Source: Candidatus Omnitrophota bacterium
GTDB taxonomy: Bacteria > Omnitrophota > Gorgyraeia > 2-02-FULL-51-18
DNA length: 64,000 nucleotides
Assembly (NCBI GenBank): GCA_016197155.1
Contig: JACPWF010000019.1
Span: forward strand, 1,485 to 65,484
Direction: 5' to 3'
Shown here in pieces: positions 17,455 through 64,000 of the stretch. The notes beneath the pieces are model-generated. The model was not told the DNA's origin. It did no database searches and was given only the letters and a program-made list of their open reading frames with translations. The stretch's first letter is position 1, and each line of letters begins with the position of its first letter. A program made the position numbers and the translations under genes.

Positions 17455-18471
17455 TCAAAAATATTCCTGCATGAAAGCGGTCACGCGCTCCTGAACGCTC
17501 GCGAACGCGTGCCGTCCCCGGGACGTGCGGGGCCTTTGTTTTTCGAGTTCATCCGCCACGTGAAGCAGTCCCGCAAGCGACGCGTATTTCGCTTCGCCGA
17601 GTTTCGCCGGCCCCAAAGGCAGGGCGACGCGCGCCGGGACAGGGATCGCCGGTTGGATAAGGTCCGCGAGATTTTTGTCCGCCGCCAGGTCTCCCGTCAC
17701 CAGGATCTCCGCCGGGGACCCATTTTTTTCCCAAAACGCCTTGATGCGGGACGGTGCGTTTTCGTCCGTCAACCAAAGGGCGTGATCCCGGATCGCGCCG
17801 TCCTCAAACAGGATCCCATTCAAAAAATCCTTTCCCCAATCGAAGATGAGCGACCTTTTCCGCCGGTCTTCCTTCGGGAGAATACCATAGGCCGTGGACC
17901 ACGCCGACACCACCGGGATCGCGTGCGGCACCTGGCACCGGTAAAAAAGTTTCTGCCACATCCCGAAATGTTCGGCGCCGGCCACGAGCAGATGCATCGA
18001 CACGCCGAGCTTCCTTCCGAAAACGCCGACGGGGCTGGCCACCAGGTCGCGGTCATCGATGAGAAAACCGGTCTCTCTGGCGTAGACGACGCTTTTGTCG
18101 AAATGGGCGGCCAGGCGCAGCGCGGTGTGCCGCGCGCGGCGGACATCCGAACGCCGGATCTCGCCCTCTCCGGAAATGGATTGGGAACCCTGGGCGCGCA
18201 CGCTCTCCATTCCGGGGTCATCCAAATTGTAATAGACCGCGCGGAATTTCACGCCGGATGATTTTTCCGCCTTCCGGATCGCCTCGTGGACGCATTCGAC
18301 CGCGTCGCCCAGATGGACGATCCGGCCCCGCTCGACGCCGTCGGCGGCCACTTCCCCGCCGCCCAGAAGATGAAAAGAGCCGTCCGCTTTTTTCTCCGCG
18401 CAGACGGCGATCACGGTTTCGGCGCCGAAGTCCGTCACGCAGAGAGTCTTCCGGGAAAACAATCGGTTCAC
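17455..18471 (-). CDS. ftsA: FtsA-like actin-family cell-division protein, divergent and short (338 aa)
   Basis: Aligns with E. coli FtsA subdomain 1C ([40 protein letters not shown]) and the C-terminal 2A region ([18 protein letters not shown]...). Part of 2B and the C-terminal amphipathic helix are missing. It lies directly after ftsQ. Confidence 0.6.
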
Positions 18472-35156: not shown

Positions 35157-35435
35157 CTACTGATTGTCTGGCGGGGAAGCGGGCTTTCGGCGATCGGGAT
35201 CGCCCGCGTGATAGTGGTTGGATTTACTCGTTTGCTCGGGACGGGTGAAACCGGTGTCCACCTGACCCGAAATCCGGTTCAGTCCTTCGTCCACGTCATT
35301 TTCGTCCGTGTCCAAAGCGTAAAGCGGCGTCTTGTCCGCGGCGCAAACGCGGCTGGGGCACAACAAAAGAGCCAGCAAACAGAAGCCAGCCGTCAAAGAG
35401 AAAGACTTTTTTGATTTTCCCTGACTACTGACCAC
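35157..35435 (-). CDS. Small secreted or lipoprotein hypothetical (92 aa)
   Basis: Signal-peptide-like N-terminus KKSFSLTAGFCLLALLLCPSRVCAAD. The ORF begins with GTG inside the dispersed-repeat fragment. The start is uncertain. Confidence 0.35.
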   Translation of the reverse strand: MVSSQGKSKKSFSLTAGFCLLALLLCPSRVCAADKTPLYALDTDENDVDEGLNRISGQVDTGFTRPEQTSKSNHYHAGDPDRRKPASPPDNQ

Positions 35436-35453
35436 TGCCTACTGACTCCTGTT
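35414..35453. repeat. Partial copy (about 40 nt) of the dispersed CTGACT-rich repeat family that also occurs inside the giant ORF
   Basis: gattttccCTGACTACTGaccactgcCTACTGACTCCTGT aligns with R2/R3 ...gggattttctcgcccttcgCTGACTACTGtcttctgtcCACTGACTCCTGTctc. Confidence 0.5.
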
Positions 35454-35878
35454 TTTTCTGCAGACCTATAAGCCGGGTTCTGTCTTCGCCCAAGGGCGAA
35501 GGATGATCATCCATCTAGCCCTGACATTGCTGGCAGGGTCAAGCGGTTCACCCGGGAATGTTGACGAGCGAGTGTGCTCGATTCTTCCCCTATTTAACCT
35601 TGCTCCGCGTGGAGATTGCTCGTTTCACCCCTTCGACGAATCGAAGGACTCGTCTCTGTAGCTCTCCCGCCAAAAATCGCGGCGGGCCGCCTTGCGGCGG
35701 GATCCTATCTGCCGGTCACGCATTTCGACCGACAAACGATGGGCGTTACCCACCACGCTCACTCGTGGAGCCCGGACTTTCCTCTTCGCCTCACGGCGCA
35801 ACGCGCCGTGTGGACGAATCCGCCGACGCTCTGGTGGCGGATCGCCCGGTGGCTCAGCGACCATCCGGTCTACAAAAA
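35452..35878 (-). ncRNA. rnpB: RNase P RNA (bacterial type A, M1 RNA)
   Basis: The minus strand carries both universally conserved P4 strands: GGAAAGUCCGGGCUCCA (plus-strand tggagcccggactttcc near 35768-35784) and ACAGAACCCGGCUUA (plus tataagccgggttctgt at 35467-35483). P1 is formed by 5' UUUUUUGUAGACC and 3' GGUCUGCAGAAAAAA. Length is about 425 nt. Confidence 0.85.
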
Positions 35879-37778: not shown

Positions 37779-38056
37779 TGGTGGGCAATACAGGACTCGC
37801 CCGCCAGAGGCGGGTCCGCCTTCGGCGGAAACCTTGTGACCTCTTCGATGTGAACGAAGCGTCCGCCATCAAAGCATCGGCGGACGCCCGCCAAAGTTCC
37901 AGTGGCGGGCGCTCCAACCCACTGACTCGCCCGCCAGAGGCGGGTCCGCCTTCGGCGGAAACCTTGTGACCTTTTCCATGTCAAGGAAACGTCCGCCATC
38001 AAAGCATCGGCGGACGCCCGCCAAAGTTCCAGTGGCGGGCGCTCTAACCCACTGCT
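37779..38056 (-). repeat. Tandem pair (about 129-130 nt period) of tRNA-Val-derived structured elements with GC-hairpin insertions. The proximal copy ends with a full tRNA-Val 3' terminus including encoded ACCA.
   Basis: Each unit has, in order: a D-loop-like AGUGGGUU(A/G)GAGCG, two GC hairpins, a complete anticodon arm, the variable region, and a T-arm interrupted by two more GC hairpins. Copy 1 has a CAC anticodon, 30/31 nt identical to the adjacent tRNA-Val gene. Copy 2 has a GAC anticodon with a covarying stem. The 3'-most 17 nt are identical to the tRNA-Val 3' end. Confidence 0.7.
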
Positions 38057-38091: not shown

Positions 38092-38165
<74 letters not shown>

Positions 38166-38174
38166 CGAAATCCC

Positions 38175-38248
38175 TGGGTCCGCCTGGACTCGAACCAGGG
38201 ACCGGCTGATTATGAGTCAGCTGCTCTAACCGACTGAGCTACGGACCC
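38175..38248 (-). tRNA. tRNA-Met (anticodon CAT, elongator-type anticodon stem; could also be tRNA-Ile2 if lysidinylated)
   Basis: GGGUCCG UA GCUC AGUCGGUUA GAGC A GCUGA CUCAUAA UCAGC CGGUC CCUGG UUCGAGU CCAGG CGGACCC A. Confidence 0.85.
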
Positions 38249-49279: not shown

Positions 49280-50748
49280 GTCCGCCGCTCCGGGATGGGC
49301 AAAACAAAATAAAAAGTCGAGCCTTTTCCGTAAACGGATTGCACGCCGATTTTTCCCTGATGGCCCCGGATGATGCGGTCCGAAATGGCCAGCCCGAGGC
49401 CGGACCCCGCCTCCGCGCGCTCGGATCCGTCCGGGACCTGCGAAAAACTTTTGAAGAGCTTGGGGACATCCTCTTCGCGGATGCCGACGCCTTCGTCAAT
49501 CACCCCCACCTGCGCGGCCATGCGGGCGTACACCGTGCGGACGAGGATCCGCCCCCGTTTGGAAAATTTGATGGCGTTGGTCAAAAAGTTCGCCAGCACC
49601 TGCGCGATTTTGTCCTTGTCGCAGGTGACAAGCGGCAGGGCCTTGTCCAAATCCGTTTCAATTTTAAGCCCTTTTTTCCCGGCGACGAGGTCAAATCCCT
49701 TTTTGACTTCGAGGATCAGGGCGTTCAGGTCGTGGGGCGCCAGGTGAAACTGCGACTCGTGCGAGCCGACCTTCTGATAATCCAGGACCTTGTTGATGAA
49801 GCGGCCCAGACGTTCGACATTGCGCATCGCGCTTTCCAGGAAATGTTTTTGGCGGGTGTTGACGGGTCCGACCGTGCCGTCCTCGACGACCGCCACGCTC
49901 TCCTTGATCGCGGTGAGCGGCGTGCGAAGCTCATGCGACACCATGTTGATGAAGTCGTCCTTCAGGCGCTCGAGTTTCTTGCGTTCGGTGATGTCGTGCA
50001 CAAAGGCGCTGAAACTGCAGGAGGTCCCGGACCGCGTGGGCCAGGACGCGATCTCGGCGGGGAATTCACGGCCGTCGTGATGCGCGAGGACCATTTCGGT
50101 TCGTTTATCCAGAAAAAAACTTTCCCCCGTCTCTACAAATCGCGCGATGTCTTCTTTCACGGACTGCTTTTGGCTTGCCGGGACAATGAGGTCCCAAACG
50201 GGCCTGCCGAGGGCCTCCTCTTTTCCGAAACCGAAAAGGACCTCCGCCTGGCGGTTCCAGTCCGTGACGCGCCCGTTCTCGTCCATCGCGAAAAAAGCGT
50301 CCCCCGCGCTTTCGATGATGATGCGCGTGCGCTCGCGGCTCTCTTTGAGCGCCTCGTCCGATCGCTTGCGCTCGATCGCGTACCGAATGACGCGCGCGAG
50401 CATGCGCGGGTTCACGACCCCTTTCACCAGATAGTCCTGCGCGCCCTTTTTCACCGCCTCGAGCGCGAGCGCGTCGTCGTCCGAGCGCGCCACGATCACG
50501 ATGGGCAGGTGACGGGCCTTGGCATTCAGCCTGAGGAAAGTTTCGAGGCCAGAGCTGTCGGGCAGTTCGAGCTCGAGGAGCACCACCTCGCATTCCTCAC
50601 AAGCCACGAACCGCAGGGCCTCCGACAGCCGGTCCACATGAACGAGGTCAAACCGCGCGTCTTTTTTGTCCACGGCGGCCAACATGTCCGTAATCAGACC
50701 TACGTCCTGGGGATTGTTCTCGACGAGGAGAACTCGGGTCGCGTCCAT
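49276..50748 (-). CDS. Hybrid sensor: N-terminal receiver domain - PAS - HisKA - HATPase_c histidine kinase
   Basis: Start at MDATRVLLVENN (TTG upstream in the track). Motifs: receiver D, PAS, H-box SHELRTPL, and G1/G2 boxes (GSGLGLAI). Confidence 0.85.
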   Translation of the reverse strand: MDATRVLLVENNPQDVGLITDMLAAVDKKDARFDLVHVDRLSEALRFVACEECEVVLLELELPDSSGLETFLRLNAKARHLPIVIVARSDDDALALEAVKKGAQDYLVKGVVNPRMLARVIRYAIERKRSDEALKESRERTRIIIESAGDAFFAMDENGRVTDWNRQAEVLFGFGKEEALGRPVWDLIVPASQKQSVKEDIARFVETGESFFLDKRTEMVLAHHDGREFPAEIASWPTRSGTSCSFSAFVHDITERKKLERLKDDFINMVSHELRTPLTAIKESVAVVEDGTVGPVNTRQKHFLESAMRNVERLGRFINKVLDYQKVGSHESQFHLAPHDLNALILEVKKGFDLVAGKKGLKIETDLDKALPLVTCDKDKIAQVLANFLTNAIKFSKRGRILVRTVYARMAAQVGVIDEGVGIREEDVPKLFKSFSQVPDGSERAEAGSGLGLAISDRIIRGHQGKIGVQSVYGKGSTFYFVLPIPERRT

Positions 50749-52183: not shown

Positions 52184-55100
52184 TTAAACCGCCTGAGCGG
52201 CCATGCGGGCGGCGAAGGCAAAGGCCCGCATTTGGGCTCCGACGGGGACCGGGCGCGGGAGGTACAAATAGAGGGCGATGATCCGAGGATCATTCGTCTG
52301 CCCCAAAATAACCAGAAGAAGTTGGGGCAGGTTATTAACGGGAAATCCGGCCGCCCTGGCCCATTCCACGAAAACGGGATTGGAGGCGGCCATGTCCGAA
52401 GCGGCGAAACGCGATTCGGTCAAGGCGGCGCGCAGGATAAAGTTGAGATTGGGAAGGCCGGGTGATTTGAGATTCACGTAAAAATAACGCTCGCCGGCCC
52501 GGGGCGCGAAGGGCCGATTCACGTCGGTGATTTTGACGGGACTCATTCCCCGAGGCGCTTGGTCGAGAATCGCCTCTGCCGCGCCAAGGCCGGTCGTCAT
52601 TTTTTTAATGGCCTCTACTCTTGCCGAATCACCGCGGAGCACAAATCGGGCGAGCGGGTCTCTCCTGGATTCAAAAACGATCGTGTAAGCCAGCATCGCC
52701 GTCATGTAGGGCGAGCTCTCGCGGGTGTAAAAATCGTCGACGTTCAGCTCGGCCGCTCCGGCCATTTTACTTAAATCTTCGTGCGCGGCGGTGAAGCGAT
52801 CGATCCGCATGAGCTCAGCGCCGAGGGCCTCTTTCAAATCGGCTTGAGAAATCTGGATCCCGGATGGGATTTGAGCGGTGGCGGTTGACGAGGCCTGATG
52901 TCTGGCCTGATACAATAAAAACGGATAATCTTTGCGCTCAATTCTGACGGCGGCCCCTCCTGTCCCGAGAACAAAAAGCGAGCCGTCTTCACTCAGCCTG
53001 ATCTCGAGCACTCTGCCGTCGAGCGCAATCAGGCCGGTTTTTCGTTGGGCATCGTAAACGAGAACGGTGAATTGGAGGAGCGATTGATCGTTTATTTGAT
53101 CAATAATTTTCTGAGAAACCGACGTAGCGAACTTGGGGTCTGACCCCGCCAAGATCCGTCGTTCTTTCCGCGCGCTGTCGGTGACCGCCAGCCTCGCGGC
53201 GCGGACTGCAGAGGACGATTTTTTCGGGCCAAAAACCCACAGGTCGACATAATTGTAGGATTGGGGGCCATTATCGAGGCCTGTAATAATCGAGCTCACG
53301 CGTGTTCGATAGCCCTCTTCGGAGTGCGCTCCTCTAACCTCATCCGCCACTTTCCTTATTTCCGCTCGGATCATTCGCCCCGCCCATTCTGGAAACAGCC
53401 CGCCATGCTCGAGGATAAAGCGGACATGCGCCAAAGTGCCGGGGGACTTTTTGCCATTGACAGCATGCGGCGCCAACTTGAATCTCAAATACCTGTCGTC
53501 AGGACTCGTTACCTCCGGACGTTTTTCCAGAAGTTCAGCTTGAATGCTCTGCCCTTCCGCCAGCCGCGCGCCGCGTGGCGCTTCCGTCGTCAAAACAAGG
53601 TTCGAGCCGTCTCCGTAAAAATGGTTTTCCGCAAACAGCCTGAGGCCAAACGTCCATAGATAGCGTGCGGATGGAATTTTGACGATCCTGTATTCCTCGT
53701 CGGTTCGCGTGTCTCTGAGAACCAATCGCGAATCTGCCCCGGCGGCATCAAATGCCTCTTCTATCGCCTTCAGCTTCAAAGCCAAAAGTTCCTGTCTTTT
53801 CGAAAGCAGTCCACTCAAAATATCGCGCGCGATGGGATTCTGACCGGCCCGTTCGATCCAGTCCCGGAGAGTGTCAGGCACACTCTCCCATCCGGCCGCC
53901 TCACTCGCAAGAGACCGCAAAAAGCGCGCAGTTTGTTGATAAACTGGGGCCTGCGCCTTGGCCATCGTCGAGGGGGACTGCGCGAAAAGCGAATAGTTTC
54001 TGTCAGCCTCAGAAACAGCGTTGTTCAAAAGCTCGACGGCCTCGTCTCTCCCCATCAAAATTCTTTGTGTTTCGGGACCATCCCCTGCCAGCCTCGCGGC
54101 CGCCGGCCGTGCGCGGCGTTCATCCGGCTGGATTTGTGCCCGTGGTTTATTGACTCCTCCAATATTGTATTTCCTCGCCACATTCAGCAAAGGTTCCGCC
54201 AGTGGATTCTTAAAATTTTCCAGATTTTTAAAAATATCCCGCAGAAGGTCTTCATTCGCGAAATTTCCAGTGTCAAAAAAAGCGTTGTATGCCTTCAAAA
54301 AATCATCTGTCAAGCGAAGCCGTCTTTTTGACCCCGCGGGAATCTTATCCAGCATGCCCAAGGCCAAGGCGGCATAATCGTTTGTGTCTTCTCCTTCCCA
54401 AGCCCCTGCGTGAGGTGTTTGACTTTTCCGATTTGCCTGTTGTTTAACGAAAGAATCGAAATAAATGGGCAATCCACGATTAAAGCTGTCCCTGGTTTGC
54501 AAATCACCGAACCAATGGTAAATCCGAACGACAACACCCCGTATCCTTGTCGCCATCCGCGCCCCCCTCGACTGCGCTCGGGACAAGCCTCGACGCGTCT
54601 CGTTGCGCTCGACTTGCTCGGGACTGGTTGGCCCTTCGCCGCGGAAGCCCTGAGCAAGGCCCGAAGGGCCGCGTCGAAGGGCCAGCCTCGCCCCAGCGCT
54701 CTCTTCCGGGCGCGCTATGAACCGAATGAAGCCCCTCTCGCAATCACTCTCAGAATAGATCCCCAAGCTCCCGGAAACCATCACAACGTCTACTAGGGCT
54801 CCATTGATTCTTCGTTTGAGCCGCCTCAGTATCTGTCCGCGGTTAACAATCTTTCTGCCCGTGAAAGTTCCAACGGTGGTCACTTCAACTATATCACCGG
54901 CCTGCCACCGGTCAAACGGCAGGGGATTTTGCGGTAAACCGACCGGAGAAATTCCTCCTTTTGAAGCATTGCTTCGAGCGGAAAGCCTCGCCCCCTGCGA
55001 AGAGTCAGAGACGGGTGACGAAATAAAATAAACAATCAGTCCCAACACCAATCCCGACGCCAGGCCAAGGAGAATATTCTCGAAGATCAAACCAAACAAC

Positions 55101-58100
55101 GCCCCAACCGCCATGCCGGAGGCTATGAATCCCGCAAGCCACATCCGGTTTGAATCCGCCAGCCGCGCGGCGGAAGAGCCGCTTGTAGTTTCGGTAAAAA
55201 TTTGAATCGCCCGGGTTTCCATCTCTACCGCGTCATTAAATGCGCGTCGGAGCGCTTCCCCGGGAAAGCCGGCAAAACCGACGCCGACGTTGATCGTGCC
55301 GTGATTGGCCAACAAAAGTTCGTTGACGCGAACGATCTTTTTGCCGACTTCCGCCGCCAGAGGGTCTCCGGGAAAGGTGTAATGGATGCTCACAATCGGC
55401 TCCTCGCCCTCACGAAGTCGAAAAGTGTGCCCAACGTTTCCGCTTGAGGCAAAACCCGTCGCCACGGGCGAATGGACATGAACCACCGCCTGCGCATCGC
55501 GCCGCGCGCGATAAATCGCCAGATGAAAAGCGGTTTCAGAGCTGGGCTTCAGATTTTCCCCAAGCCCCTTCACGCGGTGTCCCGCTTCAAGATCCACACC
55601 CACATATTCTTCCGGCCGCATGTCTTCAAAGGCTTTTCCGCTGGCTTTGATCAGGATAATATCTCTTTCGCCATTCGAAGTTTGGAGACGGACTCGGACG
55701 CTGGTGTTGCCTCCCGGTCCCACGACCAGTCTTTTCTGGGCAATTTGCCTGCCAACCGCTGTCAAAACCTCCCGCGCGCTTGCAATCGCATGGTCACTGG
55801 CCAAATTTTCGCCCAAATCCATCACTTCGGCTTTTGTTTCAACCGGTTTTCCTTCCAGCTCCGCCTGACGGTCCAACTCAATGGGCGATCCCAAGAGATC
55901 ATTCGCCTCCTCCTCACTCAGCCCCGTAGGCCTTCCGAGAATTTCCGACACCATCCTCGTCCGAATCGAATCCACTTCAACCATCGCGCGGAAAAGAGCT
56001 TCCCTTGAATTGGTGCCGACAGCGATGAGGCCGTGACGCGTGGTCATCACAACGGTATGCCCCGTCATGGCCTCGGCGATTTTCGGGTCCTCATCAACCA
56101 GCAAAAGCGGCCCTCTTTCTTTCGGCAAGGCGATATGGTCCGGCGTCACCAGAGGCAGAAGCGTTTCCGGAGCATTCCATTCATTCTCGTCAAACCGTTT
56201 TGCCAAAAGCGCCTGCGCGGCGGCGGGCCTTGACTGCACGATGAATTGGACTTTTTTATTTTTTTCATAAATAGCCCGGTGAATTTGCTCAATTTCTTCC
56301 GTCGCCTCCCCCGCAAAAATAACACTCTCACCCACGCGCATGCTGACCACCGCGTAATCGAGCCCCTCTTCTTGACAGCGCGCCAGTAAAGGTTGAAGCT
56401 CTCCCCGTAGCCACTGCGCTTCGCTAGTCAGCGCCGTCCGGGCGGCAGATTCGATCAGCCTGTTGACTTCTCTCAGAAACCGGCCGGGATATTCAGGATT
56501 TTCGAAACTCCGCATTTCCCTTTGTTCGATGGCCGCAATACCCTTTTGCTCCGCGCGGCCGAGAGTGTCCGTATAACCACTGACGATCAAGATACGAGAC
56601 TTATCAATATGTGCCTCCTGAAGAGAAGTTAAGATCTCCAAGAGAACCGTCGGATTGCTTCCGCTATACACGGCGATCACCAGATCCGGAGGGTTTCCAT
56701 CCGATTTCAGAAACGCTGGCACAGTGTCGAACGAATCGACATGATATTGGCCTGACAAGGCCGCCATCTCTTTCTCCGTAGATCGTGCGTCACCGATTAC
56801 CACAACGTGGGGGAGTTGCGCCGCCAAACCCGCTAGCCGCGCCCCCGGTATTTCCGGCGTGAAAATTTCCCGGCGGCCTCTTTGAGCCCAGACATTTCCC
56901 TTCAGTCCCGACATGGCCTCAACCTTCGGAGAAGGCAGTCCAAACCGGTCCGCGGTAAGTTCGCCTATCAGGACGGCGATGGCAAAACCGTACTCGATTG
57001 CCGCTTGAAAATAGTCCGAGGCCCCCGGAGTCCGGTTCGTAAAAAAGTAGGTGTTGTACCCGCCCGCCCACGGCGCCAGATAATCGATCTCGATCATATC
57101 CTTTTCAGAATCGAGCCCAACCTCCTTCCCCGCCTCCAAAAACGCCCTGCGGAAAAGTTTTGTTGTCGTCCGGTGATGCGGATGGCTGTCCTCTTCGTGC
57201 GGAAGGATGTAAATAAATGGAGTGCCGCGCGCTTTGGCGGTTAAAATTGCATACCGATTGGCTTTGAAATACGCCCGCGCGATCCCGAGCGCCGTCGGAT
57301 ATTCCTCATCCCACAACCACTCCGGAGGACCGCCGACCCGGTGCGCGTAGGCGGGGAGCAACAAATCAAGCCACTTGACCTCGAGCGGCTTCGGCATTCC
57401 CTCTGAAAGAATCGAGGAAGCCTTTTCCACTTCCAGGCGCCGGATAACGCGCCGCGCGACCTGTTCGAGGCCGACGGACATTTCCTTTCCCGCAGTCCAA
57501 TGGGAAACTTCGAGTTTTAGATTCTCAACTTCGCCAAACGTCGTGTACCGCGTCTCAAAATCTCTTCGAGCATCGCCCGGGAGTTTCTCCAAATCAAGCT
57601 CCGAAATAACCCGCCGATACACCCCGTGTTCTCTTTGAATTCTCTCCCAAAACGCGCGCGCCTCTTCCTCGTTCAAACTTTTTAGGTACCCGATCGCAGC
57701 CGCCACCTGATCATCGCTCAAACGAGCCACCCCGCTGTCTCCCGCGCCGGCCACCCAGTTTTGAACCGAAATGCCCGCCCTGAGCGAATTAAGAATAAGG
57801 CCCGCCAGCGCGATCACGTCATCGTCCGGATGCGGAGATAAAATGACGAGCGGGTACGCACGACTTATTTTTCCCAAAATATTTTTTGCCTGTTCCGGAG
57901 TAACCGGGGTCGCGTTTCCTTCGGCATCATAATGCATCACCGTGACGGGATTGGCATGCCCGGCCGAATCCTCCAGAAGACCTCTGATCTTGCCCATCGA
58001 GGCCCCGTATTTTGCCAGCCACTTCAGCACCGCTTCATAACCCGTTCTAAAAAGCTGCGTCAAATGAGCGCGAAGCGCCGAAAGGGCCTTTTCCAAATCC

Positions 58101-61100
58101 TCCTGTCCCTTTCCGAAAGGAATGTACGCATTGACGGGGTTGGCGATCCGCGGAGGAACCGATTCATAAAAAATCACCTCGACCGGACGGCGGGCCCGGT
58201 TGACGTATTCTTGAACGGCCCGCCTCACAAAGCGTTCCTCGGGTTTGTTAAAACCGTCGTTCGGCACAATGAGAATCCGGGGGTCAAATCCGTTTAAATT
58301 ATTTGAAAGATCTTCCAAAGAAAAATGACGGACGGTATTTTTGTAGGCCAGCTTTTCAAATTCTCCGATCACCTCGCCAAAAAATGGCGCGGAATCGCCC
58401 TCTTCCAGCTCCACGACCGCAATCCCGGCATCTCTCGGAAGCGCGCCGTACTTTACTCCTTTGGCTTGCTCGTCCTGTGGAAGATTTGACAAAATCACGC
58501 CGCCCGCTTCCGGAAGCGGGAGAAACTGCCTCGCACCGGCCAGCCGGGCGGCAGGGGCAGGCATGGAGGGTTTTCCCGGCTTTTCGAACTCCCGGTAGAC
58601 CTCAACCATTAAAGTTAAAGGGGTCAAATCTTTCTTTGACTGCATGTTCCCCGCCAACCGCGCGGCGAGAGCGACAGGATTATTTCCAAAAATAAAAGGA
58701 TGTGTTATACTCTCCGCAATGCTCACGAAAAATTTCTGGACGGAGAAAAGGCTCGATGCGGTGGGCAAGACCTCTCTGACACTGTTCCAAGCGTTTTTGA
58801 TCGCCGCGGCGCTGGGAGGAATATTCGGTAAAATCGAGTCCGGTTGGCATAAGGCCCTGTTTGTCGCGGCAACCGTGATATTTTTGGCTTTGGGCATCAC
58901 TCTTTCGGATAACAAGCCAAAGGAGAAATAAAATGTTCGGACTAATAACTGCCATCGTGATCGGGCTGGTTCTATCCATCTGGATAGCCATTGAGCGGTA
59001 CCAGCAGAAACACCGGCATTCGCATTAATTCTTCCGCAATTCCACCCTTCCCTTCCCGCCTGATTTCCGTCTCCTGACAACTGTGTTAAAGGGGTCAAAT
59101 CTTTCTTTGACTGCATGTTCCCCGCCAATCGGGCGGCGCTGGGATTTTCTCGCCCTTCGCTGACTACTGTCTTCTGTCCACTGACTCCTGTCTCTTCTCC
59201 CGCCAGCCGCCCGCCACTAGGGCGTTGGCGCCCGTCCGCCGGATCTGTAGTGGCGGAGGCAGGCGCGGCGTTCGGGCTTATAGAGAAATAACGGTAGCGG
59301 TCTGCGCTCGAAGGATTTCCGGTTTGAATGAAACTGCAATTGTAATCTTTATCCGTAAAAAGCCTCCTAATCTTATCCAGCCGTTTATTGATCGCTTGAA
59401 GGTCCTCGGTATTTGTATTTGGTGGATAGGAAATACACACGCGCCATTCGCCGTCTGCCTCGGTTAAGACTGCGTCGTGATATTCCTGCGGTACTCCTCT
59501 GGCAAACTCAAGCATCTTGGAGGTATCCCCGGCAGTAAACCCCGCCAGGCGGGCCTGCCCGTCCGCCAGGCGCGCCCCCTGCCCTGAGCCTGCCGAAGGG
59601 GTGGCGCGGCGGGTAGCAAGAATACGGAGAATGCTTTCTTTCTCCGCCTCGTAATTTTTACCATGTTTGCCGGAAAGGGCTACCGCCTCCGAAAGCCCGG
59701 CGTCAAGATTCTCCTCGTTTTGGGCAAACCAGTTGACGCTTCGCACGGGCCCAAATGCTGGGGCGTCCGGACGCCCTCGCGTTTGAAGATAGGTCCGGAT
59801 CTTATGCATGATCTGATTGTTATCTCTGATAGTATCCGTTTGCGCCGGCCCATCCACCGTGATGACTGACTCCGCAATGAAGTCCTCGTCCACTCCGCTT
59901 CGTATTAGCAAAGCGATCAGGAGGAGTTTGAACTCTTTTCTCCTTTCACCAAATAAAATAGGGACTCTCTCTTGTTCTGCCTGGGCGGGATCCCTTTCGT
60001 TTTTTTGTCTTCCTCTGATTACCGCCCACCGGTTTCCGCCCACTACCCTTCCCCCCGCCAGGCGAGCGGCGGAAATGTCACTATGGGAGCGCAGTGGGTT
60101 TGGATAAGAGACCAGCGCTGACGGGAGAAGTTCATCGTCACTTTTTTCACCGGAAATTTTAAAGTCGGGTATTGTCTGCCTTGTCTCCAGATCAAAAGCG
60201 CTGAGCGAGCCGTTCCAATCCCTAATCACAACAAGCCGGGAGTCCTGAGAGATTTTGTAGGAGTAGACCGTTTTGGCTTCCAGGCCTGCTATTTTTTCTC
60301 CCGTGCTGAGATCAAAAACGTTGAGCGATTCGCCGGGCCAGCCGTGAATCACGATGAATTTGGAGTCCGGGGAAATCCGGAAGGAGTGGACGTCGGGGAT
60401 CGGGTTTCCTATTTTCTGTCCCGTTTTGAGATTAAAGATATCCAGCGAGTAATCGGCCGTGTACCAAACCACAACGAACCGGGAGTCCGGGGAAATGTCG
60501 AAAGATTCGACATTTTTAGAAGTTCTCAGAACGGGCGCTTCCTCTCCCGTGTTGAGATTGAAAGCGGCTAATGAGCCGTCGTTGTACAAAATCACAACGA
60601 ACTGACTGTCCCGAGAGAAAACGCGGGTAATTTCGTCGGCGCGGGCATTCACCACGAGCGCCATGGATCCGGAACTGCCGCTTATCGAAAAGGCCGTCCG
60701 CGGCGGGATCGAGATCGAATCTCCTTTGCGCAGAAAGATGCTCGGATACCCGTCCGTTTTCAGGTAGACACCGCCCTGCCCTTCCCCCACAAAAATTTGA
60801 GTTTCGTCCGGACGCGCCTCAAAGGATTGTTCGGTCGCGCCGTCCTCATAAAAGTAGCGGCGGAATTCAAGGTCGCCCTCCAGGATTTGCCGGAAAAGAG
60901 GTTCTTTTTTATCGGCAACGCGAACGATGCCCAAATCTTCGCGCGTGGTCCTGCCGTCCCGCTCCGAACGGACCTTGGCGGCATTATTTTTTCTGCGAAC
61001 ATAGGGCAGGCTGGTCATAAAAATAAGGTGCAGATCCCCGTCGCCGGTCGAGGTGATCGAGTGCATCGCCCCCGCCGGAATCATGAAAAAATCTCCGGCC

Positions 61101-64000
61101 TCAACTTCGATGGATCTTCTCCCGATGTGAACGACGCCCTTGCCCTCGCGGATATAATAAAATTCGGGATGCTTTCTTTGCCCGACATGGTGTTTGTGCT
61201 TGGGGAGGCGGCTTTCGCCGGTCAGGGAGGCGGTGTTCATCAAAACGCCGGGGCCTTTCTGCATGCGTCCCAATCGAATGCGCACCGAAGGATTCATGGG
61301 GGCGCGCTTAACGGCCGTCCCGAAACTCACGATTCGCCCGATCTTGCTCACCGTGGGATCTGTCAAAACAGTCGAAATCGCCCGCTCAAACCGCTCCTGC
61401 AAACTGACACCGGCCGTTTCTTTCAAATCCAGAAAGTTCCCGGCGATCGCCTTCGCCAAAGCGTAAGGGTGATAGCCTCCAGTGGCGCCTTCGACCACGA
61501 CTTGAAACGGGGAGTCCCTGCCAGGCCCTCGAGGGTTTACTTTCACAGTCAAGCGGCGCCCTTTAAAATCCGCCTCGACCGACTCTATTCCCGCTTTTGT
61601 TAATTCAGCGTCCGTGTACGCATTGTCACTCAATCGCGCGGCGGATTCACTCGAAGGCTTGAAAGGCTCGATCACGATCCTGCCGTGGACATGATCGACC
61701 GTTAAAGTAAATCGCTGATCAAAAGATCCGGCGGGCAACCGCTCTGTAATCATACGATCCAAATGGTTAGTTATGTTCGTTGTTTGTTTACCATCTCTAA
61801 GCGTCGGTAAATAAATGCTGTCGATGAACACGTCATTTCCTTTGTCTGAATAAAAGACCTGGACAAAGCCTGTGGGCGACACTGATTCCCAATGGGACAG
61901 GATGGACATAGCCTCCCTCACTAAATTACTCTCCCGAACCACCATCGGGTCGGCGGTGCGAGGCCCATGCTGTTCAGCTAAAGGGGTCAAATCTTTCTTT
62001 GACTGCATTTTCCCCGCCAACCGCGCGGCACTGGGATTTTCTCGCCCTTCGCTGACTACTGTCTTCTGTCTACTGACTTCTGTCTCTTCCCCTGCCAACC
62101 GCGCCGCTTTATACGTTCGTAGTTTTTCTGCTATCAACACCGGCCGCATGCCGTCCTTTAATTCTAAATCCCGAAATTCACGCACCAACATTAGTGAGCG
62201 ACGGTCATTTGGACGGAACATCGTTTTTGGAGATTGATACCCGGAGAATCTCCTTTCGTGAAAGAAAATATTGTACGCTTCAAAACGTTCGATTTCCTGG
62301 CTGGAAAAAGGCTGTCCGTCTTTACGTGTAACGGATAAACGAATAGTCCATGTCTCGGACGTCTTACAAATACCAATGGTCATCAGGTAGGGCCCGTGTT
62401 TTATTGACAACTCGTCTCTAAAATTACTCCGAGGGGGCCGCTCGTCACGAGCTTTCTTCACAGCGCCGACGATGAAGCCGGTAATTTGTTCCCGTTTATT
62501 TTCAAATATAAACCTGAGAAAACTGTCAACGAAAACTCCAAAACTCCGGTAGTTCAATAAATAGTAGATATAGTTAACAAAACTAAACATGGGAGAAAAG
62601 CCGATACTTGTCCCTAATTGTAAAATTTTATAGGGATAGCTAAAAAGTAAACCACCCAACACAAACAGCCATGGAAGAAATATTCCGTATCTAGAAAACT
62701 TCCATAGCCCATAGGTTACGGGTTTCCAATCGCTCTCTTTTGCAGGCATTTTGTTTTCCAGACTCGCCAGCCGCGCGGCAGATGCAGGCGAGGCGTGCCT
62801 TCTCGCCTCTTTCAAAAGTCTGTTGATTTCTCGGCCTTGCCGCGTTTGACCCCAACGTCTTTCTATGTTTCCTTCCTCAATGAAAGCTCTATGAGGATTC
62901 CCAGGAGACAAGCGAAAGAAATGCCTCGGGTCTATACGACCGGCCGCTTCATCCGCGACCACAAGAACGGCGTTCTGCGCCAGATGCATCCAGGAAGCCG
63001 TGGCGCTTGAATTAGGCGGCATCGCCCAAGAACGCCGGAGCGCTTCGGCTTTATGCGGACCGGCGACCATGAACAAATTGACCGAGTCTGGATTATTCGT
63101 GCGAAGCATAATGTCGCCGGTGCCCTGGGTGAAAGCGTACCTTGGAGTGACATCGTAATTGTCTAACGCATATTGAAAAGCCTCTTGAAAATGTTCGAGC
63201 GATGCAAACTGGTATTTTGTTTCCGGATAATGCCCGGCCAATTTGTCGAAAGTAATCTCTTCCAGCATCCCGGCCAAAATCTCGATCAAGTCCAAAAGAT
63301 GCGCGATGCCGCTGTCTCCCATAAAACGCAGGAAAAACGGATGAAAGGCTGGGCCGAAATGACCACGATTTTGCACTTGAGTGGCTTCCACCACTTGAGT
63401 CAAATGATCCGGCCTCAAAACTCTTAGAGACTGAGGAACTCTTTCCAGGGAATCGGGAATACGCAATCCGGGAAAGTGCTTCGCGGGGTCGCCTCTCCTT
63501 AGGTCTGGTGAAGGTAGGAGGAAAGGATCATTAAACGCATCATGTCCGGTTGTTCCAACGCCGTGAAGTTGAAGCAAAATCCTTTCTGCAGCTTCCATAA
63601 ATATAGCCATAAGCCTGACATAATTAACACTACTATCGACCCATGGAGATACAAAAACAGGCGGCGATAAAAACTGTCCTTTGATATGCTCAATCGGGAA
63701 TTTTCTTCCCAATAAATTGACCAACATCATGTAAAGCTGTTCTTCGCGGTAACTGGACAAAGCGTACACTTGCGGATCAGTGACCATCTTTTCACCGTCC
63801 ATAGGCGGCCAGAAATAATCATCCAACGTGGTCCATCGCTTGGCTTTGTCAAAAGCCTTTAAAGTAAATTGACCTGGAAACGCCTGTCCAATCAGGTTCC
63901 AAAGTCCCAAGGCTTTTCGCAGGCTTTCGGTGGTTCCACCGGTGGCCAGACCAAAATTGAACTGCTCCTCGGCCGCATGAACGAGAGCCAAAACAAGGTG
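52184..64000 (-). CDS. Giant modular ORF (>3935 aa, N-terminus beyond the window). It consists of heterogeneous enzyme-like and membrane modules joined by linkers carrying a recurrent (A/G)ARLA(G) motif.
   Basis: 11.8 kb with no stop codon in one frame, and no long ORF on the opposite strand. The minus frame carries recognisable domains: a cupin (about 61000-61200), a 4-bladed beta-propeller/WD-like repeat (about 60150-60650), an LmbE/PIG-L deacetylase (SPHPDDD, about 57800), tandem class II aldolase/adducin domains (GGNTSVR...HVHSP, about 55200-56300), and TM segments. Confidence 0.75.
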   Translation of the reverse strand, partial: HLVLALVHAAEEQFNFGLATGGTTESLRKALGLWNLIGQAFPGQFTLKAFDKAKRWTTLDDYFWPPMDGEKMVTDPQVYALSSYREEQLYMMLVNLLGRKFPIEHIKGQFLSPPVFVSPWVDSSVNYVRLMAIFMEAAERILLQLHGVGTTGHDAFNDPFLLPSPDLRRGDPAKHFPGLRIPDSLERVPQSLRVLRPDHLTQVVEATQVQNRGHFGPAFHPFFLRFMGDSGIAHLLDLIEILAGMLEEITFDKLAGHYPETKYQFASLEHFQEAFQYALDNYDVTPRYAFTQGTGDIMLRTNNPDSVNLFMVAGPHKAEALRRSWAMPPNSSATASWMHLAQNAVLVVADEAAGRIDPRHFFRLSPGNPHRAFIEEGNIERRWGQTRQGREINRLLKEARRHASPASAARLASLENKMPAKESDWKPVTYGLWKFSRYGIFLPWLFVLGGLLFSYPYKILQLGTSIGFSPMFSFVNYIYYLLNYRSFGVFVDSFLRFIFENKREQITGFIVGAVKKARDERPPRSNFRDELSIKHGPYLMTIGICKTSETWTIRLSVTRKDGQPFSSQEIERFEAYNIFFHERRFSGYQSPKTMFRPNDRRSLMLVREFRDLELKDGMRPVLIAEKLRTYKAARLAGEETEVSRQKTVVSEGRENPSAARLAGKMQSKKDLTPLAEQHGPRTADPMVVRESNLVREAMSILSHWESVSPTGFVQVFYSDKGNDVFIDSIYLPTLRDGKQTTNITNHLDRMITERLPAGSFDQRFTLTVDHVHGRIVIEPFKPSSESAARLSDNAYTDAELTKAGIESVEADFKGRRLTVKVNPRGPGRDSPFQVVVEGATGGYHPYALAKAIAGNFLDLKETAGVSLQERFERAISTVLTDPTVSKIGRIVSFGTAVKRAPMNPSVRIRLGRMQKGPGVLMNTASLTGESRLPKHKHHVGQRKHPEFYYIREGKGVVHIGRRSIEVEAGDFFMIPAGAMHSITSTGDGDLHLIFMTSLPYVRRKNNAAKVRSERDGRTTREDLGIVRVADKKEPLFRQILEGDLEFRRYFYEDGATEQSFEARPDETQIFVGEGQGGVYLKTDGYPSIFLRKGDSISIPPRTAFSISGSSGSMALVVNARADEITRVFSRDSQFVVILYNDGSLAAFNLNTGEEAPVLRTSKNVESFDISPDSRFVVVWYTADYSLDIFNLKTGQKIGNPIPDVHSFRISPDSKFIVIHGWPGESLNVFDLSTGEKIAGLEAKTVYSYKISQDSRLVVIRDWNGSLSAFDLETRQTIPDFKISGEKSDDELLPSALVSYPNPLRSHSDISAARLAGGRVVGGNRWAVIRGRQKNERDPAQAEQERVPILFGERRKEFKLLLIALLIRSGVDEDFIAESVITVDGPAQTDTIRDNNQIMHKIRTYLQTRGRPDAPAFGPVRSVNWFAQNEENLDAGLSEAVALSGKHGKNYEAEKESILRILATRRATPSAGSGQGARLADGQARLAGFTAGDTSKMLEFARGVPQEYHDAVLTEADGEWRVCISYPPNTNTEDLQAINKRLDKIRRLFTDKDYNCSFIQTGNPSSADRYRYFSISPNAAPASATTDPADGRQRPSGGRLAGEETGVSGQKTVVSEGRENPSAARLAGNMQSKKDLTPLTQLSGDGNQAGREGWNCGRINANAGVSAGTAQWLSRWIEPARSRWQLLVRTFYFSFGLLSERVMPKAKNITVAATNRALCQPDSILPNIPPSAAAIKNAWNSVREVLPTASSLFSVQKFFVSIAESITHPFIFGNNPVALAARLAGNMQSKKDLTPLTLMVEVYREFEKPGKPSMPAPAARLAGARQFLPLPEAGGVILSNLPQDEQAKGVKYGALPRDAGIAVVELEEGDSAPFFGEVIGEFEKLAYKNTVRHFSLEDLSNNLNGFDPRILIVPNDGFNKPEERFVRRAVQEYVNRARRPVEVIFYESVPPRIANPVNAYIPFGKGQEDLEKALSALRAHLTQLFRTGYEAVLKWLAKYGASMGKIRGLLEDSAGHANPVTVMHYDAEGNATPVTPEQAKNILGKISRAYPLVILSPHPDDDVIALAGLILNSLRAGISVQNWVAGAGDSGVARLSDDQVAAAIGYLKSLNEEEARAFWERIQREHGVYRRVISELDLEKLPGDARRDFETRYTTFGEVENLKLEVSHWTAGKEMSVGLEQVARRVIRRLEVEKASSILSEGMPKPLEVKWLDLLLPAYAHRVGGPPEWLWDEEYPTALGIARAYFKANRYAILTAKARGTPFIYILPHEEDSHPHHRTTTKLFRRAFLEAGKEVGLDSEKDMIEIDYLAPWAGGYNTYFFTNRTPGASDYFQAAIEYGFAIAVLIGELTADRFGLPSPKVEAMSGLKGNVWAQRGRREIFTPEIPGARLAGLAAQLPHVVVIGDARSTEKEMAALSGQYHVDSFDTVPAFLKSDGNPPDLVIAVYSGSNPTVLLEILTSLQEAHIDKSRILIVSGYTDTLGRAEQKGIAAIEQREMRSFENPEYPGRFLREVNRLIESAARTALTSEAQWLRGELQPLLARCQEEGLDYAVVSMRVGESVIFAGEATEEIEQIHRAIYEKNKKVQFIVQSRPAAAQALLAKRFDENEWNAPETLLPLVTPDHIALPKERGPLLLVDEDPKIAEAMTGHTVVMTTRHGLIAVGTNSREALFRAMVEVDSIRTRMVSEILGRPTGLSEEEANDLLGSPIELDRQAELEGKPVETKAEVMDLGENLASDHAIASAREVLTAVGRQIAQKRLVVGPGGNTSVRVRLQTSNGERDIILIKASGKAFEDMRPEEYVGVDLEAGHRVKGLGENLKPSSETAFHLAIYRARRDAQAVVHVHSPVATGFASSGNVGHTFRLREGEEPIVSIHYTFPGDPLAAEVGKKIVRVNELLLANHGTINVGVGFAGFPGEALRRAFNDAVEMETRAIQIFTETTSGSSAARLADSNRMWLAGFIASGMAVGALFGLIFENILLGLASGLVLGLIVYFISSPVSDSSQGARLSARSNASKGGISPVGLPQNPLPFDRWQAGDIVEVTTVGTFTGRKIVNRGQILRRLKRRINGALVDVVMVSGSLGIYSESDCERGFIRFIARPEESAGARLALRRGPSGLAQGFRGEGPTSPEQVERNETRRGLSRAQSRGARMATRIRGVVVRIYHWFGDLQTRDSFNRGLPIYFDSFVKQQANRKSQTPHAGAWEGEDTNDYAALALGMLDKIPAGSKRRLRLTDDFLKAYNAFFDTGNFANEDLLRDIFKNLENFKNPLAEPLLNVARKYNIGGVNKPRAQIQPDERRARPAAARLAGDGPETQRILMGRDEAVELLNNAVSEADRNYSLFAQSPSTMAKAQAPVYQQTARFLRSLASEAAGWESVPDTLRDWIERAGQNPIARDILSGLLSKRQELLALKLKAIEEAFDAAGADSRLVLRDTRTDEEYRIVKIPSARYLWTFGLRLFAENHFYGDGSNLVLTTEAPRGARLAEGQSIQAELLEKRPEVTSPDDRYLRFKLAPHAVNGKKSPGTLAHVRFILEHGGLFPEWAGRMIRAEIRKVADEVRGAHSEEGYRTRVSSIITGLDNGPQSYNYVDLWVFGPKKSSSAVRAARLAVTDSARKERRILAGSDPKFATSVSQKIIDQINDQSLLQFTVLVYDAQRKTGLIALDGRVLEIRLSEDGSLFVLGTGGAAVRIERKDYPFLLYQARHQASSTATAQIPSGIQISQADLKEALGAELMRIDRFTAAHEDLSKMAGAAELNVDDFYTRESSPYMTAMLAYTIVFESRRDPLARFVLRGDSARVEAIKKMTTGLGAAEAILDQAPRGMSPVKITDVNRPFAPRAGERYFYVNLKSPGLPNLNFILRAALTESRFAASDMAASNPVFVEWARAAGFPVNNLPQLLLVILGQTNDPRIIALYLYLPRPVPVGAQMRAFAFAARMAAQAV
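58612..58667. repeat. Dispersed repeat R1 (short form, 56 nt) lying in-frame within the giant ORF
   Basis: ttaaaGGGGTCAAATCTTTCTTTGACTGCATGTTCCCCGCCAACCGCGCGGCG. It contains the hairpin GGGGTCAAA..TTTGAC..CCCC and encodes AARLAGNMQSKKDLTPL on the minus frame. Confidence 0.7.
58719..58931 (+). CDS. Small membrane protein (70 aa, 2 TM), encoded antisense inside the giant ORF
   Basis: MLTKNFWTEKRLDAVGKTSLTLFQAFLIAAALGGIFGKIESGWHKALFVAATVIFLALGITLSDNKPKEK. TATACT lies 7 nt upstream of the ATG, suggesting a possibly leaderless transcript. Confidence 0.4.
   Translation: MLTKNFWTEKRLDAVGKTSLTLFQAFLIAAALGGIFGKIESGWHKALFVAATVIFLALGITLSDNKPKEK
58933..59028 (+). CDS. Small hydrophobic peptide (31 aa, single TM, type-I-toxin-like architecture), encoded antisense inside the giant ORF
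   Basis: MFGLITAIVIGLVLSIWIAIERYQQKHRHSH, preceded by a perfect SD AAAGGAGAAA with 6-nt spacing, 2 nt after the stop of the upstream small gene. Confidence 0.5.
   Translation: MFGLITAIVIGLVLSIWIAIERYQQKHRHSH
59086..59216. repeat. Dispersed repeat R2 (long form, about 131 nt) lying in-frame within the giant ORF
   Basis: Same 5' part as R1, plus the CTGACT-rich 3' part. It is almost identical to R3. Confidence 0.7.
61978..62108. repeat. Dispersed repeat R3 (long form, about 131 nt) lying in-frame within the giant ORF
   Basis: Near-identical to R2 over about 130 nt. Confidence 0.7.

Follow-up and report, generated by a model that had tools for sequence, protein, structure and literature searches.

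The stretch analysed in the present study, hereafter the window, comprises 64,000 nt of contig JACPWF010000019.1 from a Candidatus Omnitrophota bacterium, and its last part is occupied by a giant open reading frame (ORF) that carries three copies of a short repeat, R1, R2 and R3 (Table 1). The product is P0001, a protein of 5823 amino acids encoded on the 72-kb contig (72,072 bp) of a Candidatus Omnitrophica metagenome-assembled genome, with a 100% match in NCBI. Pfam places a class II aldolase (Aldolase_II), a cupin, a PIG-L and beta-propeller domains in series, and with NagB-like and other modules in addition the protein is a chain of unrelated modules. The Omnitrophota origin and the many unrelated enzyme domains within a single ORF place it among the multi-enzyme giant proteins of this phylum. 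Its relatives are few, are other Omnitrophota proteins of 2.6-7.2 thousand amino acids (kaa), and have one NagB-like module in common, while the remaining enzymes differ. The G+C content at positions 62001-64000 is 47.8%, compared with about 57% over the rest of the window, and this stretch spans the NagB-like module, the sole module common to other giant proteins.

The modules of the giant ORF are separated by a peptide motif, (A/G)-A-R-L-A-(G/D/E), of which 19-20 copies were counted in the part within the window and 25-29 in the full-length protein of 5823 residues. The motifs occur about every 40-560 residues, at module boundaries and at the ends of every duplicated linker block. Because the codons vary synonymously, with CGG, CGC, CGA and AGG for arginine and CTG, TTG, CTA and CTT for leucine, ARLAG is maintained at the peptide level. 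A reading of the same patches as a DNA palindrome or hairpin was rejected, as their palindromy is 71, against 70.3 +/- 4.7 under synonymous recoding (P = 0.46). The ARLA motif is a candidate cleavage or junction signal.

Table 1. Positions in the window of the linker cassettes, their parts and the related repeats
Feature	Position	Strand	Remarks
Giant ORF hosting R1-R3	52184-64000	minus	3' 3938 codons; 5' part beyond the window edge
R3, linker cassette	61978-62108	minus	encodes AARLAG-EETEVSRQKTVVSEGRENPS-AARLAG-KMQSKKDLTPL
R2, linker cassette	59086-59216	minus	encodes GGRLAG-EETGVSGQKTVVSEGRENPS-AARLAG-NMQSKKDLTPL
R1, short copy	58614-58667	minus	second ARLAG and H core only (AARLAGNMQSKKDLTPL)
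ARLAG-coding patches in R3	62090-62107 (first), 62012-62029 (second)	minus	
ARLAG-coding patches in R2	59198-59215, 59120-59137	minus	
ARLAG-coding patch in R1	58649-58666	minus	
H core in R3	61981-62017	minus	37 nt, GGGGAAAATGCAGTCAAAGAAAGATTTGACCCCTTTA; potential hairpin GTCAAA/TTTGAC; 84-92% identical to the intergenic copies of contig L122
H core in R2	59089-59125	minus	
H core in R1	58618-58654	minus	
Heptad array in R3	62052-62091	minus	plus strand CTGACTA CTGTCTT CTGTCTA CTGACTT CTGTCTC; G(A/U)CAG units on the mRNA
Heptad array in R2	59160-59199	minus	degenerate
F, heptad array	35414-35453	minus	five units, between the rnpB 3' end and a small signal-peptide-like ORF; overlaps AGGAG and GTG start
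Linker segment just 5' of R2 on the mRNA	59208-59260	minus	encodes AAPASATTDPADGRQRPSGG
Two tandem 130-nt copies, 95% identical	37794-38053		G+C-rich, hairpin-rich; between tRNA-Val and an AbiEii-like nucleotidyltransferase gene

The three copies lie where a preliminary description of this DNA had placed them. A repeat finder returned positions 59087-59210 against 61979-62102 at 93% identity (124 nt), a three-copy family of 54 nt at 58614, 59085 and 61977 with 94-96% identity, which defines R1, and a three-copy family of 56 nt that joins 35404-35459 to both long copies at 73-75%. The identity of R2 and R3, previously given as about 95% over 131 nt, is lower, with 117 of exactly 131 positions in agreement (89.3%). 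Along the mRNA the long copies have the order ARLAG, 20 residues encoded by five degenerate heptads, a second ARLAG, and (K/N)MQSKKDLTPL encoded by a 37-nt core, designated H. Thus, the cassette is made up of the peptide punctuation A-A-R-L-A-G, a degenerate heptanucleotide tandem repeat and H, which is roughly 37 nt in length and hairpin-capable. Every copy had been said to be in frame, stop-free and to contribute one and the same long peptide, and this holds for R2 and R3, whereas R1 contributes its short peptide only. The predicted linker peptides include TVVSEGR, ENPSAAR and DLTPLAEQHGPR.

The divergence between the two long copies is unevenly distributed. The homologous block of R2 and R3 comprises 123 nt (41 codons), beginning with the R of the first motif and ending with the final L, and contains nine differences. 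Of these, seven (six of them synonymous) lie in the two ARLAG patches, which together span 36 nt, and none lies in a 30-nt core of H, which is also without substitutions when R1 is included. A 26-nt core, GGGGTCAAATCTTTCTTTGACTGCAT, is identical in R1, R2 and R3 and was matched in none of the shuffled sequences. The R2/R3 block starts at the first ARLAG, R1 starts at the second, all three copies end at ...CCCCTTTA, and a duplicated segment encoding AAPASATT..GGRLA likewise ends at an ARLA motif. Since all homology blocks start or end there, recombination at the roughly 29 dispersed ARLAG patches would fit the observed pattern. The uneven divergence is compatible with short-tract conversion among the patches, with nucleotide-level constraint on H, or with a recent insertion. 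A second duplicated linker, encoding RRGPSGLAQGFRGEGPTSPEQVERNETRRG, lies at about 54580-54690 of the window (minus strand) and corresponds to residues 1423 and 4996 of P0001, one copy being located beyond the window; this linker resembles pseudo-peptides of low complexity that result from the translation of G+C-rich dispersed repeats.

Whether H is conserved as protein or as nucleic acid is indicated by its occurrence outside the giant ORF, for which the external support consists of two metagenome contigs, L121 and L122. These were returned by a metagenome scan for DNA able to encode MQSKKDLTP, and because the scan required ATGCAR, H copies reading ATGTAG would have been overlooked unless a sibling copy matched; the nucleotide pattern of H without the ATGCA constraint is AGTCAARGARAGAYYTGACCCCTT. 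Contig L122 has a G+C content of 50%, compared with 57% in the window, and is assigned to Omnitrophota by its tyrosyl-tRNA synthetase, for which every named match is Candidatus Omnitrophica (58-65% identity). It contains five intergenic H copies of the form ...GGAGCGGTGAACATG(C/T)AGTCAA(A/G)GA(A/G)AGA(T/C)TTGACCCCTTATTT, three of which read ATG-TAG, and H is the sole similarity between this contig and the window DNA (84-95% identity over 33-37 nt). Contig L121 (47% G+C) carries a 1668-codon ORF with seven ARLA motifs, and two inverted H copies lie within one linker of this ORF, read as GSNLSLTT and DAVKKRPDPP, that is, in frames other than the one giving MQSKKDLTP. H is stop-free in four of its six frames. 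A covariance model derived from the ten H copies gives 67-69 bits for R1-R3 and 43-71 bits (E 1e-9 to 1e-17) for the copies of L121 and L122; in the window nothing else exceeds 14 bits, and about 760 kb of other loci contain no match of comparable score. Marginal matches of the model at 49689-49707 of the window and at a site within tyrS, both inside ordinary coding sequence, were dismissed as chance. H is therefore conserved in nucleotide sequence across genomes, strands and reading frames, and protein-level homology is excluded because H is read in three coding frames and on both strands and has intergenic copies with stop codons. The comparison thus supports the view that conservation of this part of the repeat acts on the nucleic acid and not on the protein.

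These results bear directly on one alternative, namely that a protein segment was duplicated within the gene and that the rnpB-side array F and the external matches reflect chance or compositional likeness. The three R copies share one ORF and one frame and are all located in linkers, no H copy was found outside the giant ORF in the window, and the heptad core of F is no closer to R2 than 19 of 120 unrelated arrays, all of which such a duplication would accommodate. However, it would leave unexplained the 43-71 bits obtained on L121 and L122 against nothing comparable in the other loci, the coding of H in three frames and on both strands together with intergenic copies containing stops, and the resemblance, well above that of shuffled sequences, between a neighbouring linker and a probably non-coding repeat of the window. 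For the H core, plain duplication is contradicted by the sequence comparison, and as an account of the whole repeat we consider it improbable. The preliminary description would have preferred plain intragenic duplication had the copies been confined to paralogous protein segments, and this is not the case, because H recurs intergenically in L122 and in other frames in L121. Its further question, whether copies elsewhere are always in frame, is answered in the negative for H, since the L121 copies occupy two other frames and both orientations and the L122 copies are intergenic, three of the five reading ATG-TAG.

The linker segment adjoining R2 provides a second case of coding sequence that is similar to a repeat located elsewhere. 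This segment (59208-59260), which is duplicated also in the N-terminal part of the giant protein, agrees with the tandem repeat at 37794-38053 at 40 of 53 positions in inverted orientation, the best shuffled sequence reaching 34. The tandem repeat directly follows the genes for tRNA-Met and tRNA-Val (38092-38248) on their downstream side and is probably non-coding, because, with respect to the neighbouring ORF, it is located upstream of the AbiEii-like nucleotidyltransferase domain. The G-G-R-L-A-G of R2 starts inside the last hairpin arm of a repeat of this type. Thus, the linker neighbouring R2 resembles a probably non-coding repeat of the same window.

The heptads represent the remaining part of the cassette. 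The 7-nt periodicity noted previously is real and rare, since the pattern CTGNCNN forms arrays in the 64 kb at 35421-35453, 59160-59199 and 62052-62091 only, all on the plus strand and each with five units, giving nine matches against 0.02 expected. A motif-free scan for period 7 recovered only two of these arrays, at 35420-35451 and 62051-62086, as the one in R2 remained below the threshold. The array F, described before as a fragment of the R family lying outside any gene, does not bear out either part of that description. It adjoins the last base of the match to rnpB, the RNase P RNA (35453-35876, minus strand), and overlaps the AGGAG and GTG that open an ORF of 92 codons with a signal-peptide-like N-terminus (35157-35435, minus strand), so that it is not clearly outside any gene. 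Over its 35-nt heptad core F is 80% identical to R2, and because 19 of 120 unrelated arrays from other phyla match the R2 core equally well or better, descent shared with R is unproven; with its pyrimidine-rich flanks (56 nt) F is 75% identical to R2, which exceeds all 120 unrelated arrays (maximum 66%). We consider that F is probably an independent member of the same heptad-repeat class, and not a demonstrable fragment of R. A scan for promoters and terminators around F gave nothing informative.

The class itself is common. A scan of GTDB genomes with a degenerate, very general pattern returned CTG(A/T)CNN arrays at no fewer than 120 loci in Cyanobacteria, Acidobacteriota, Planctomycetota, Verrucomicrobiota, Chloroflexota, Bacteroidota, Streptomyces and at least three Omnitrophota; among the matches listed, the free fourth position is nearly always A or T, and none is from the present contig. 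Arrays of this kind were seen in at least eight phyla, and in several cases the array stops a few bases short of a start codon (L011, L113 and L118) or a tRNA gene (L035). The heptads of the cassette are an ordinary instance of a very widespread class of heptamers. Heptamer repeats are over-represented in bacteria and are mostly intergenic (PMC4692102, PMC4679880), and the TAACTGA repeats lie just upstream of start codons or, within ORFs, at protein edges in a stop-free orientation (PMC4679880). The arrays described herein consist of head-to-tail units with a conserved core, exceeding the three to four units expected of such a repeat, and they depart from the intergenic placement in forward orientation upstream of a start codon, as two of the three lie in the giant ORF and the third is reverse-oriented. 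In another Omnitrophota giant gene (17864-27700 of contig L124), a perfect (ATACTCA)x4 at 18008-18051 lies in frame, between the signal peptide and a conserved IQDAHASL block; it might act as an on/off switch, because a slip of one unit would shift the frame.

A function at the RNA level has also to be weighed. The heptads together with H might form a cis-acting signal, in which an unstructured purine-rich array is recognized by a protein that binds single-stranded RNA (S1, Csp or CsrA-like, by analogy with what has been suggested for TAACTGA repeats) and is followed by an internal AUG, so that the modules downstream are translated separately, F acting likewise for the small ORF next to rnpB. 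Several features are in line with this arrangement: F overlaps the AGGAG and GTG start of that ORF, the flank of H in L122 reads AGGAG-N8-ATG, R has an AUG (MQSKKD...) immediately after the second ARLAG, divergence is lower in the heptad part and the H core than in the adjoining ARLAG patches, and all three heptad arrays share their orientation relative to transcription. In addition, a role in binding post-transcriptional regulators has been suggested for heptamer direct repeats that lie immediately upstream of start codons (PMC4679880). On the other hand, the sequence before the AUG in R, GGCGGGGAA(A/C), matches a Shine-Dalgarno sequence poorly, the arrays are reversed compared with the TAACTGA paradigm, in which the forward strand precedes the start codon, R1 consists of H without heptads, and three of the five L122 copies read ATG-TAG. 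Nor do the structural analyses favour such a signal. The folding z-scores for both strands of R1, R2, R3 and F are weak (-0.5 to -2.1), and no Rfam match was obtained at R or F at the gathering thresholds or at the L122 copies at E <= 10. The potential stem of H comprises 5-6 bp around a 6-nt loop and shows no covariation, since three pairs are invariant, the loop-proximal pair is broken as often as it is compensated, and 414 of 500 shuffles score as high. In the minimum-energy fold of R the two ARLAG patches are paired, with one double change from G-C to C-G, as seen in two sequences only. Neither the Rfam search nor the covariation analysis thus places the repeat in a structured RNA family, and a cis-acting RNA signal seems to us a poor candidate explanation.

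The comparison of RNA structure across copies had been suggested in the preliminary description, in which the heptads were taken to indicate a function at the level of the nucleic acid, such as a protein-binding array or the end of a mobile element. The more general idea finds partial support, as the H core is conserved as nucleotides, intergenically in L122 and in other frames and both orientations in L121, but this evidence concerns the half of the repeat without heptads and not the CTGACT heptads that gave rise to the idea. Of the two specific functions neither is demonstrated, given the weak folding z-scores, the lack of H covariation and the lack of an Rfam match.

Herein, we propose that R1-R3 are copies of an inter-module linker cassette of a giant multi-enzyme ORF, in which a tolerant linker has taken up repeats of a non-coding type that were then multiplied inside the gene; we consider this somewhat more probable than its opposite, at roughly 0.55. 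Both the heptads and H are sequence types that otherwise occur in non-coding DNA. First, such repeats may have entered the frame through the fusion of adjacent genes or through insertion into a tolerant spacer. Second, they would persist because the frame in use is stop-free and encodes a hydrophilic, probably unstructured peptide. Third, recombination or gene conversion, acting at the ARLAG-coding patches or close to them, would have multiplied the cassette within the gene. The predicted role of the cassette in the protein is that of a spacer or of two adjacent punctuation sites.

Several observations weigh against this proposal. The distribution of H is patchy, with H being absent at the loci of two related giant proteins, P0003 and P0005, and from 72 kb around tyrS in close relatives of L122, and H-derived peptides being found in none of 26 related proteins; a protein search with the R peptide likewise gave no candidates in the word index. 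Every H copy of the window lies inside the one giant ORF, and because only these 64 kb were examined, dispersal of H in the source genome is not demonstrated. The taxon of L121 is inferred from its ARLA punctuation alone, and its ORF shows no BLASTP similarity to other giant proteins. Furthermore, the uneven divergence of R2 and R3 could mean nucleotide-level constraint on H or its very recent insertion.

The latter possibility leads to an explanation by transposition, in which R, or H alone, would be a small, actively transposing element, either a miniature inverted-repeat transposable element (MITE) or one like the repetitive extragenic palindromic (REP) sequences and their REPIN doublets, that inserted three times independently into the giant gene, possibly favouring DNA that codes for ARLAG, so that the near-identity of the copies reflects recent transposition and not intragenic recombination. 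The patchy distribution and the 84-95% identity of H between genomes without other DNA similarity would be expected of such an element, as would the lack of substitutions in the 30-nt core, the REPIN-like inverted doublet of L121, and the conserved 5' flank GCGG(G/T)GAAC, which overlaps the AG(N) of ARLAG in each of R1, R2 and R3. In L122, the five H copies, the only extragenic ones found, lie in a 10-kb stretch that forms a mobile and defence island, whose genes include a Y1 transposase resembling the REP-associated tyrosine transposases (RAYT), a truncated rve transposase abutting one H copy, and PIN, GmrSD and HNH genes. GTAG stands directly 5' of the hairpin in three of these five copies, with GCAG elsewhere. 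In REPs, which are imperfect palindromes of 20-40 nt, a GTAG-type motif (GT(A/G)G) directly precedes the hairpin. One L122 copy is flanked by a 12-nt direct repeat, GACCCCTTATTT. Against transposition, neither terminal inverted repeats nor target-site duplications were found at the R boundaries, no homologue of the Y1 transposase was detectable in the window by tblastn, and no match to H was found in plasmids, phages or viral contigs. Moreover, the 123 nt common to R2 and R3 extend over the heptads and both ARLAG patches, a pattern that resembles the copying of a segment and not the insertion of 37 nt, and the RAYT-like gene of L122 is flanked by a different palindrome, GGGACCTGGTCCC. On balance, we regard transposition of R or H as rather unlikely. 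The L122 island, located next to rpsA and tyrS, has its RAYT-like gene at 1604-2182 within 1538-2296, with inverted GGGACCTGGTCCC-type palindromes on both sides, two of them in tandem on one side; these form a REP/RAYT-like pair distinct from H.

The ARLA motif appears to be the more novel lead compared with the R repeats, the heptads of which belong to a known class. ARLA punctuation was found in P0001, P0003 and L121, and other recovered proteins have recurrent motifs of their own, namely GARLA (P0003), KPASSDLG/KPEAANL (P0004), A(A/S)SLG (P0006, P0010 and P0014), AMGEGD and PASAI (P0002), RSExR (P0017), ASSSG (P0008) and ASSP (P0025), the placement of which between modules was judged by eye only. 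By our own back-translation, RSE(A/T)R is a putative opposite-strand reading of DNA coding for A-S-L-G-A. It is conceivable, and we advance it tentatively, that the giant multi-enzyme ORFs of Omnitrophota are strings of cassettes, the junctions of which carry lineage-specific peptide punctuation and the linkers of which are partly non-coding repeats (H, heptads and G+C-rich hairpin repeats) read in frame. The punctuation might then be the site recognized by a processing protease that co-evolves with it, as in a bacterial polyprotein, or the scar or substrate of module-shuffling recombination, and R, with two motifs 20 residues apart, would represent an "empty" cassette. As far as the literature was searched, neither the building of linkers from such repeats in the giant ORFs of Omnitrophota nor a lineage-specific punctuation where modules join has been described.

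The present locus offers two leads on how Omnitrophota construct and use ORFs of thousands to more than 100,000 codons. First, the peptide motif that recurs where modules meet is a candidate site of cleavage or junction. Second, linker DNA that matches non-coding repeat families suggests growth by fusion through repeat-rich intergenic DNA or by repeat insertion into spacers. The R locus also adds a case of in-frame "selfish" repeats outside Rickettsia. If, on the contrary, the ordinary reading is true and R is a duplicated spacer with no nucleic-acid function, the result is a useful annotation note and no more.

Among the known systems, the host protein itself is most readily compared with the Omnitrophota giant proteins of the "Archaeovorin" type (10.1101/2023.11.21.568195) and of the "multi-enzyme metabolic cluster" (10.64898/2026.06.07.730766). 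The likeness lies in the Omnitrophota origin, the many unrelated enzyme domains in series, the HEAT and HATPase content and the hydrophobic, transmembrane-like stretches, whereas the present protein, at 5.8 kaa, is smaller than the 10-kaa and 30-kaa thresholds used there. As far as the two papers were searched, neither recurrent punctuation motifs nor linkers built from repeats of a non-coding type are mentioned, and in the first of them the cleavage points of these proteins are described as unknown, which prevents module-wise structure prediction (10.1101/2023.11.21.568195). The heptads are comparable to the short tandemly repeated repetitive (STRR) sequences of cyanobacteria, to TAACTGA of Beggiatoaceae, Cyanobacteria and Bacteroidetes (PMC4679880) and to GGGAATC of Xanthomonas (PMC4692102), as they consist of 7-nt units arranged head to tail around a conserved core, with a unit, CTG(A/T)C, that contains an ACTGA-like core, and as the class is spread over phyla and its in-ORF arrays lie at the domain periphery in a stop-free orientation. 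The present arrays differ in being degenerate, with five different units, in being located inside the giant ORF in two of three cases, and in the reversed orientation of the intergenic one with respect to the downstream start codon.

H resembles REP and REPIN sequences and their RAYT partners in a potential short hairpin after G(T/C)AG, in its multiple intergenic copies in the 10 kb of L122, in the inverted doublet of L121 and in the nearby RAYT-like gene of L122. It differs from them in its short, A+T-rich stem; furthermore, no RAYT was found in the window, and the L122 gene is flanked by another palindrome, whereas a cognate RAYT would be flanked by the same repeat. The Rickettsia palindromic elements (RPE), which occur in frame within genes (Ogata et al. 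2000, as reviewed in PMC10969869), are longer than H (about 100-150 bp compared with about 37 nt). H, moreover, has a potential stem of 5-6 bp only, is read in at least three frames or orientations, sits within ORFs only in the linkers of giant modular ORFs, and is joined to a heptamer repeat and a peptide punctuation motif. Despite these differences, H, like RPE and like intragenic MITE or ERIC-type repeats, is a small repeat present both in non-coding DNA (L122) and inside ORFs (the window and L121), where it is read through without stops and adds a peptide at a tolerated position. Among the known systems, an in-frame element of the RPE kind is the closest counterpart.

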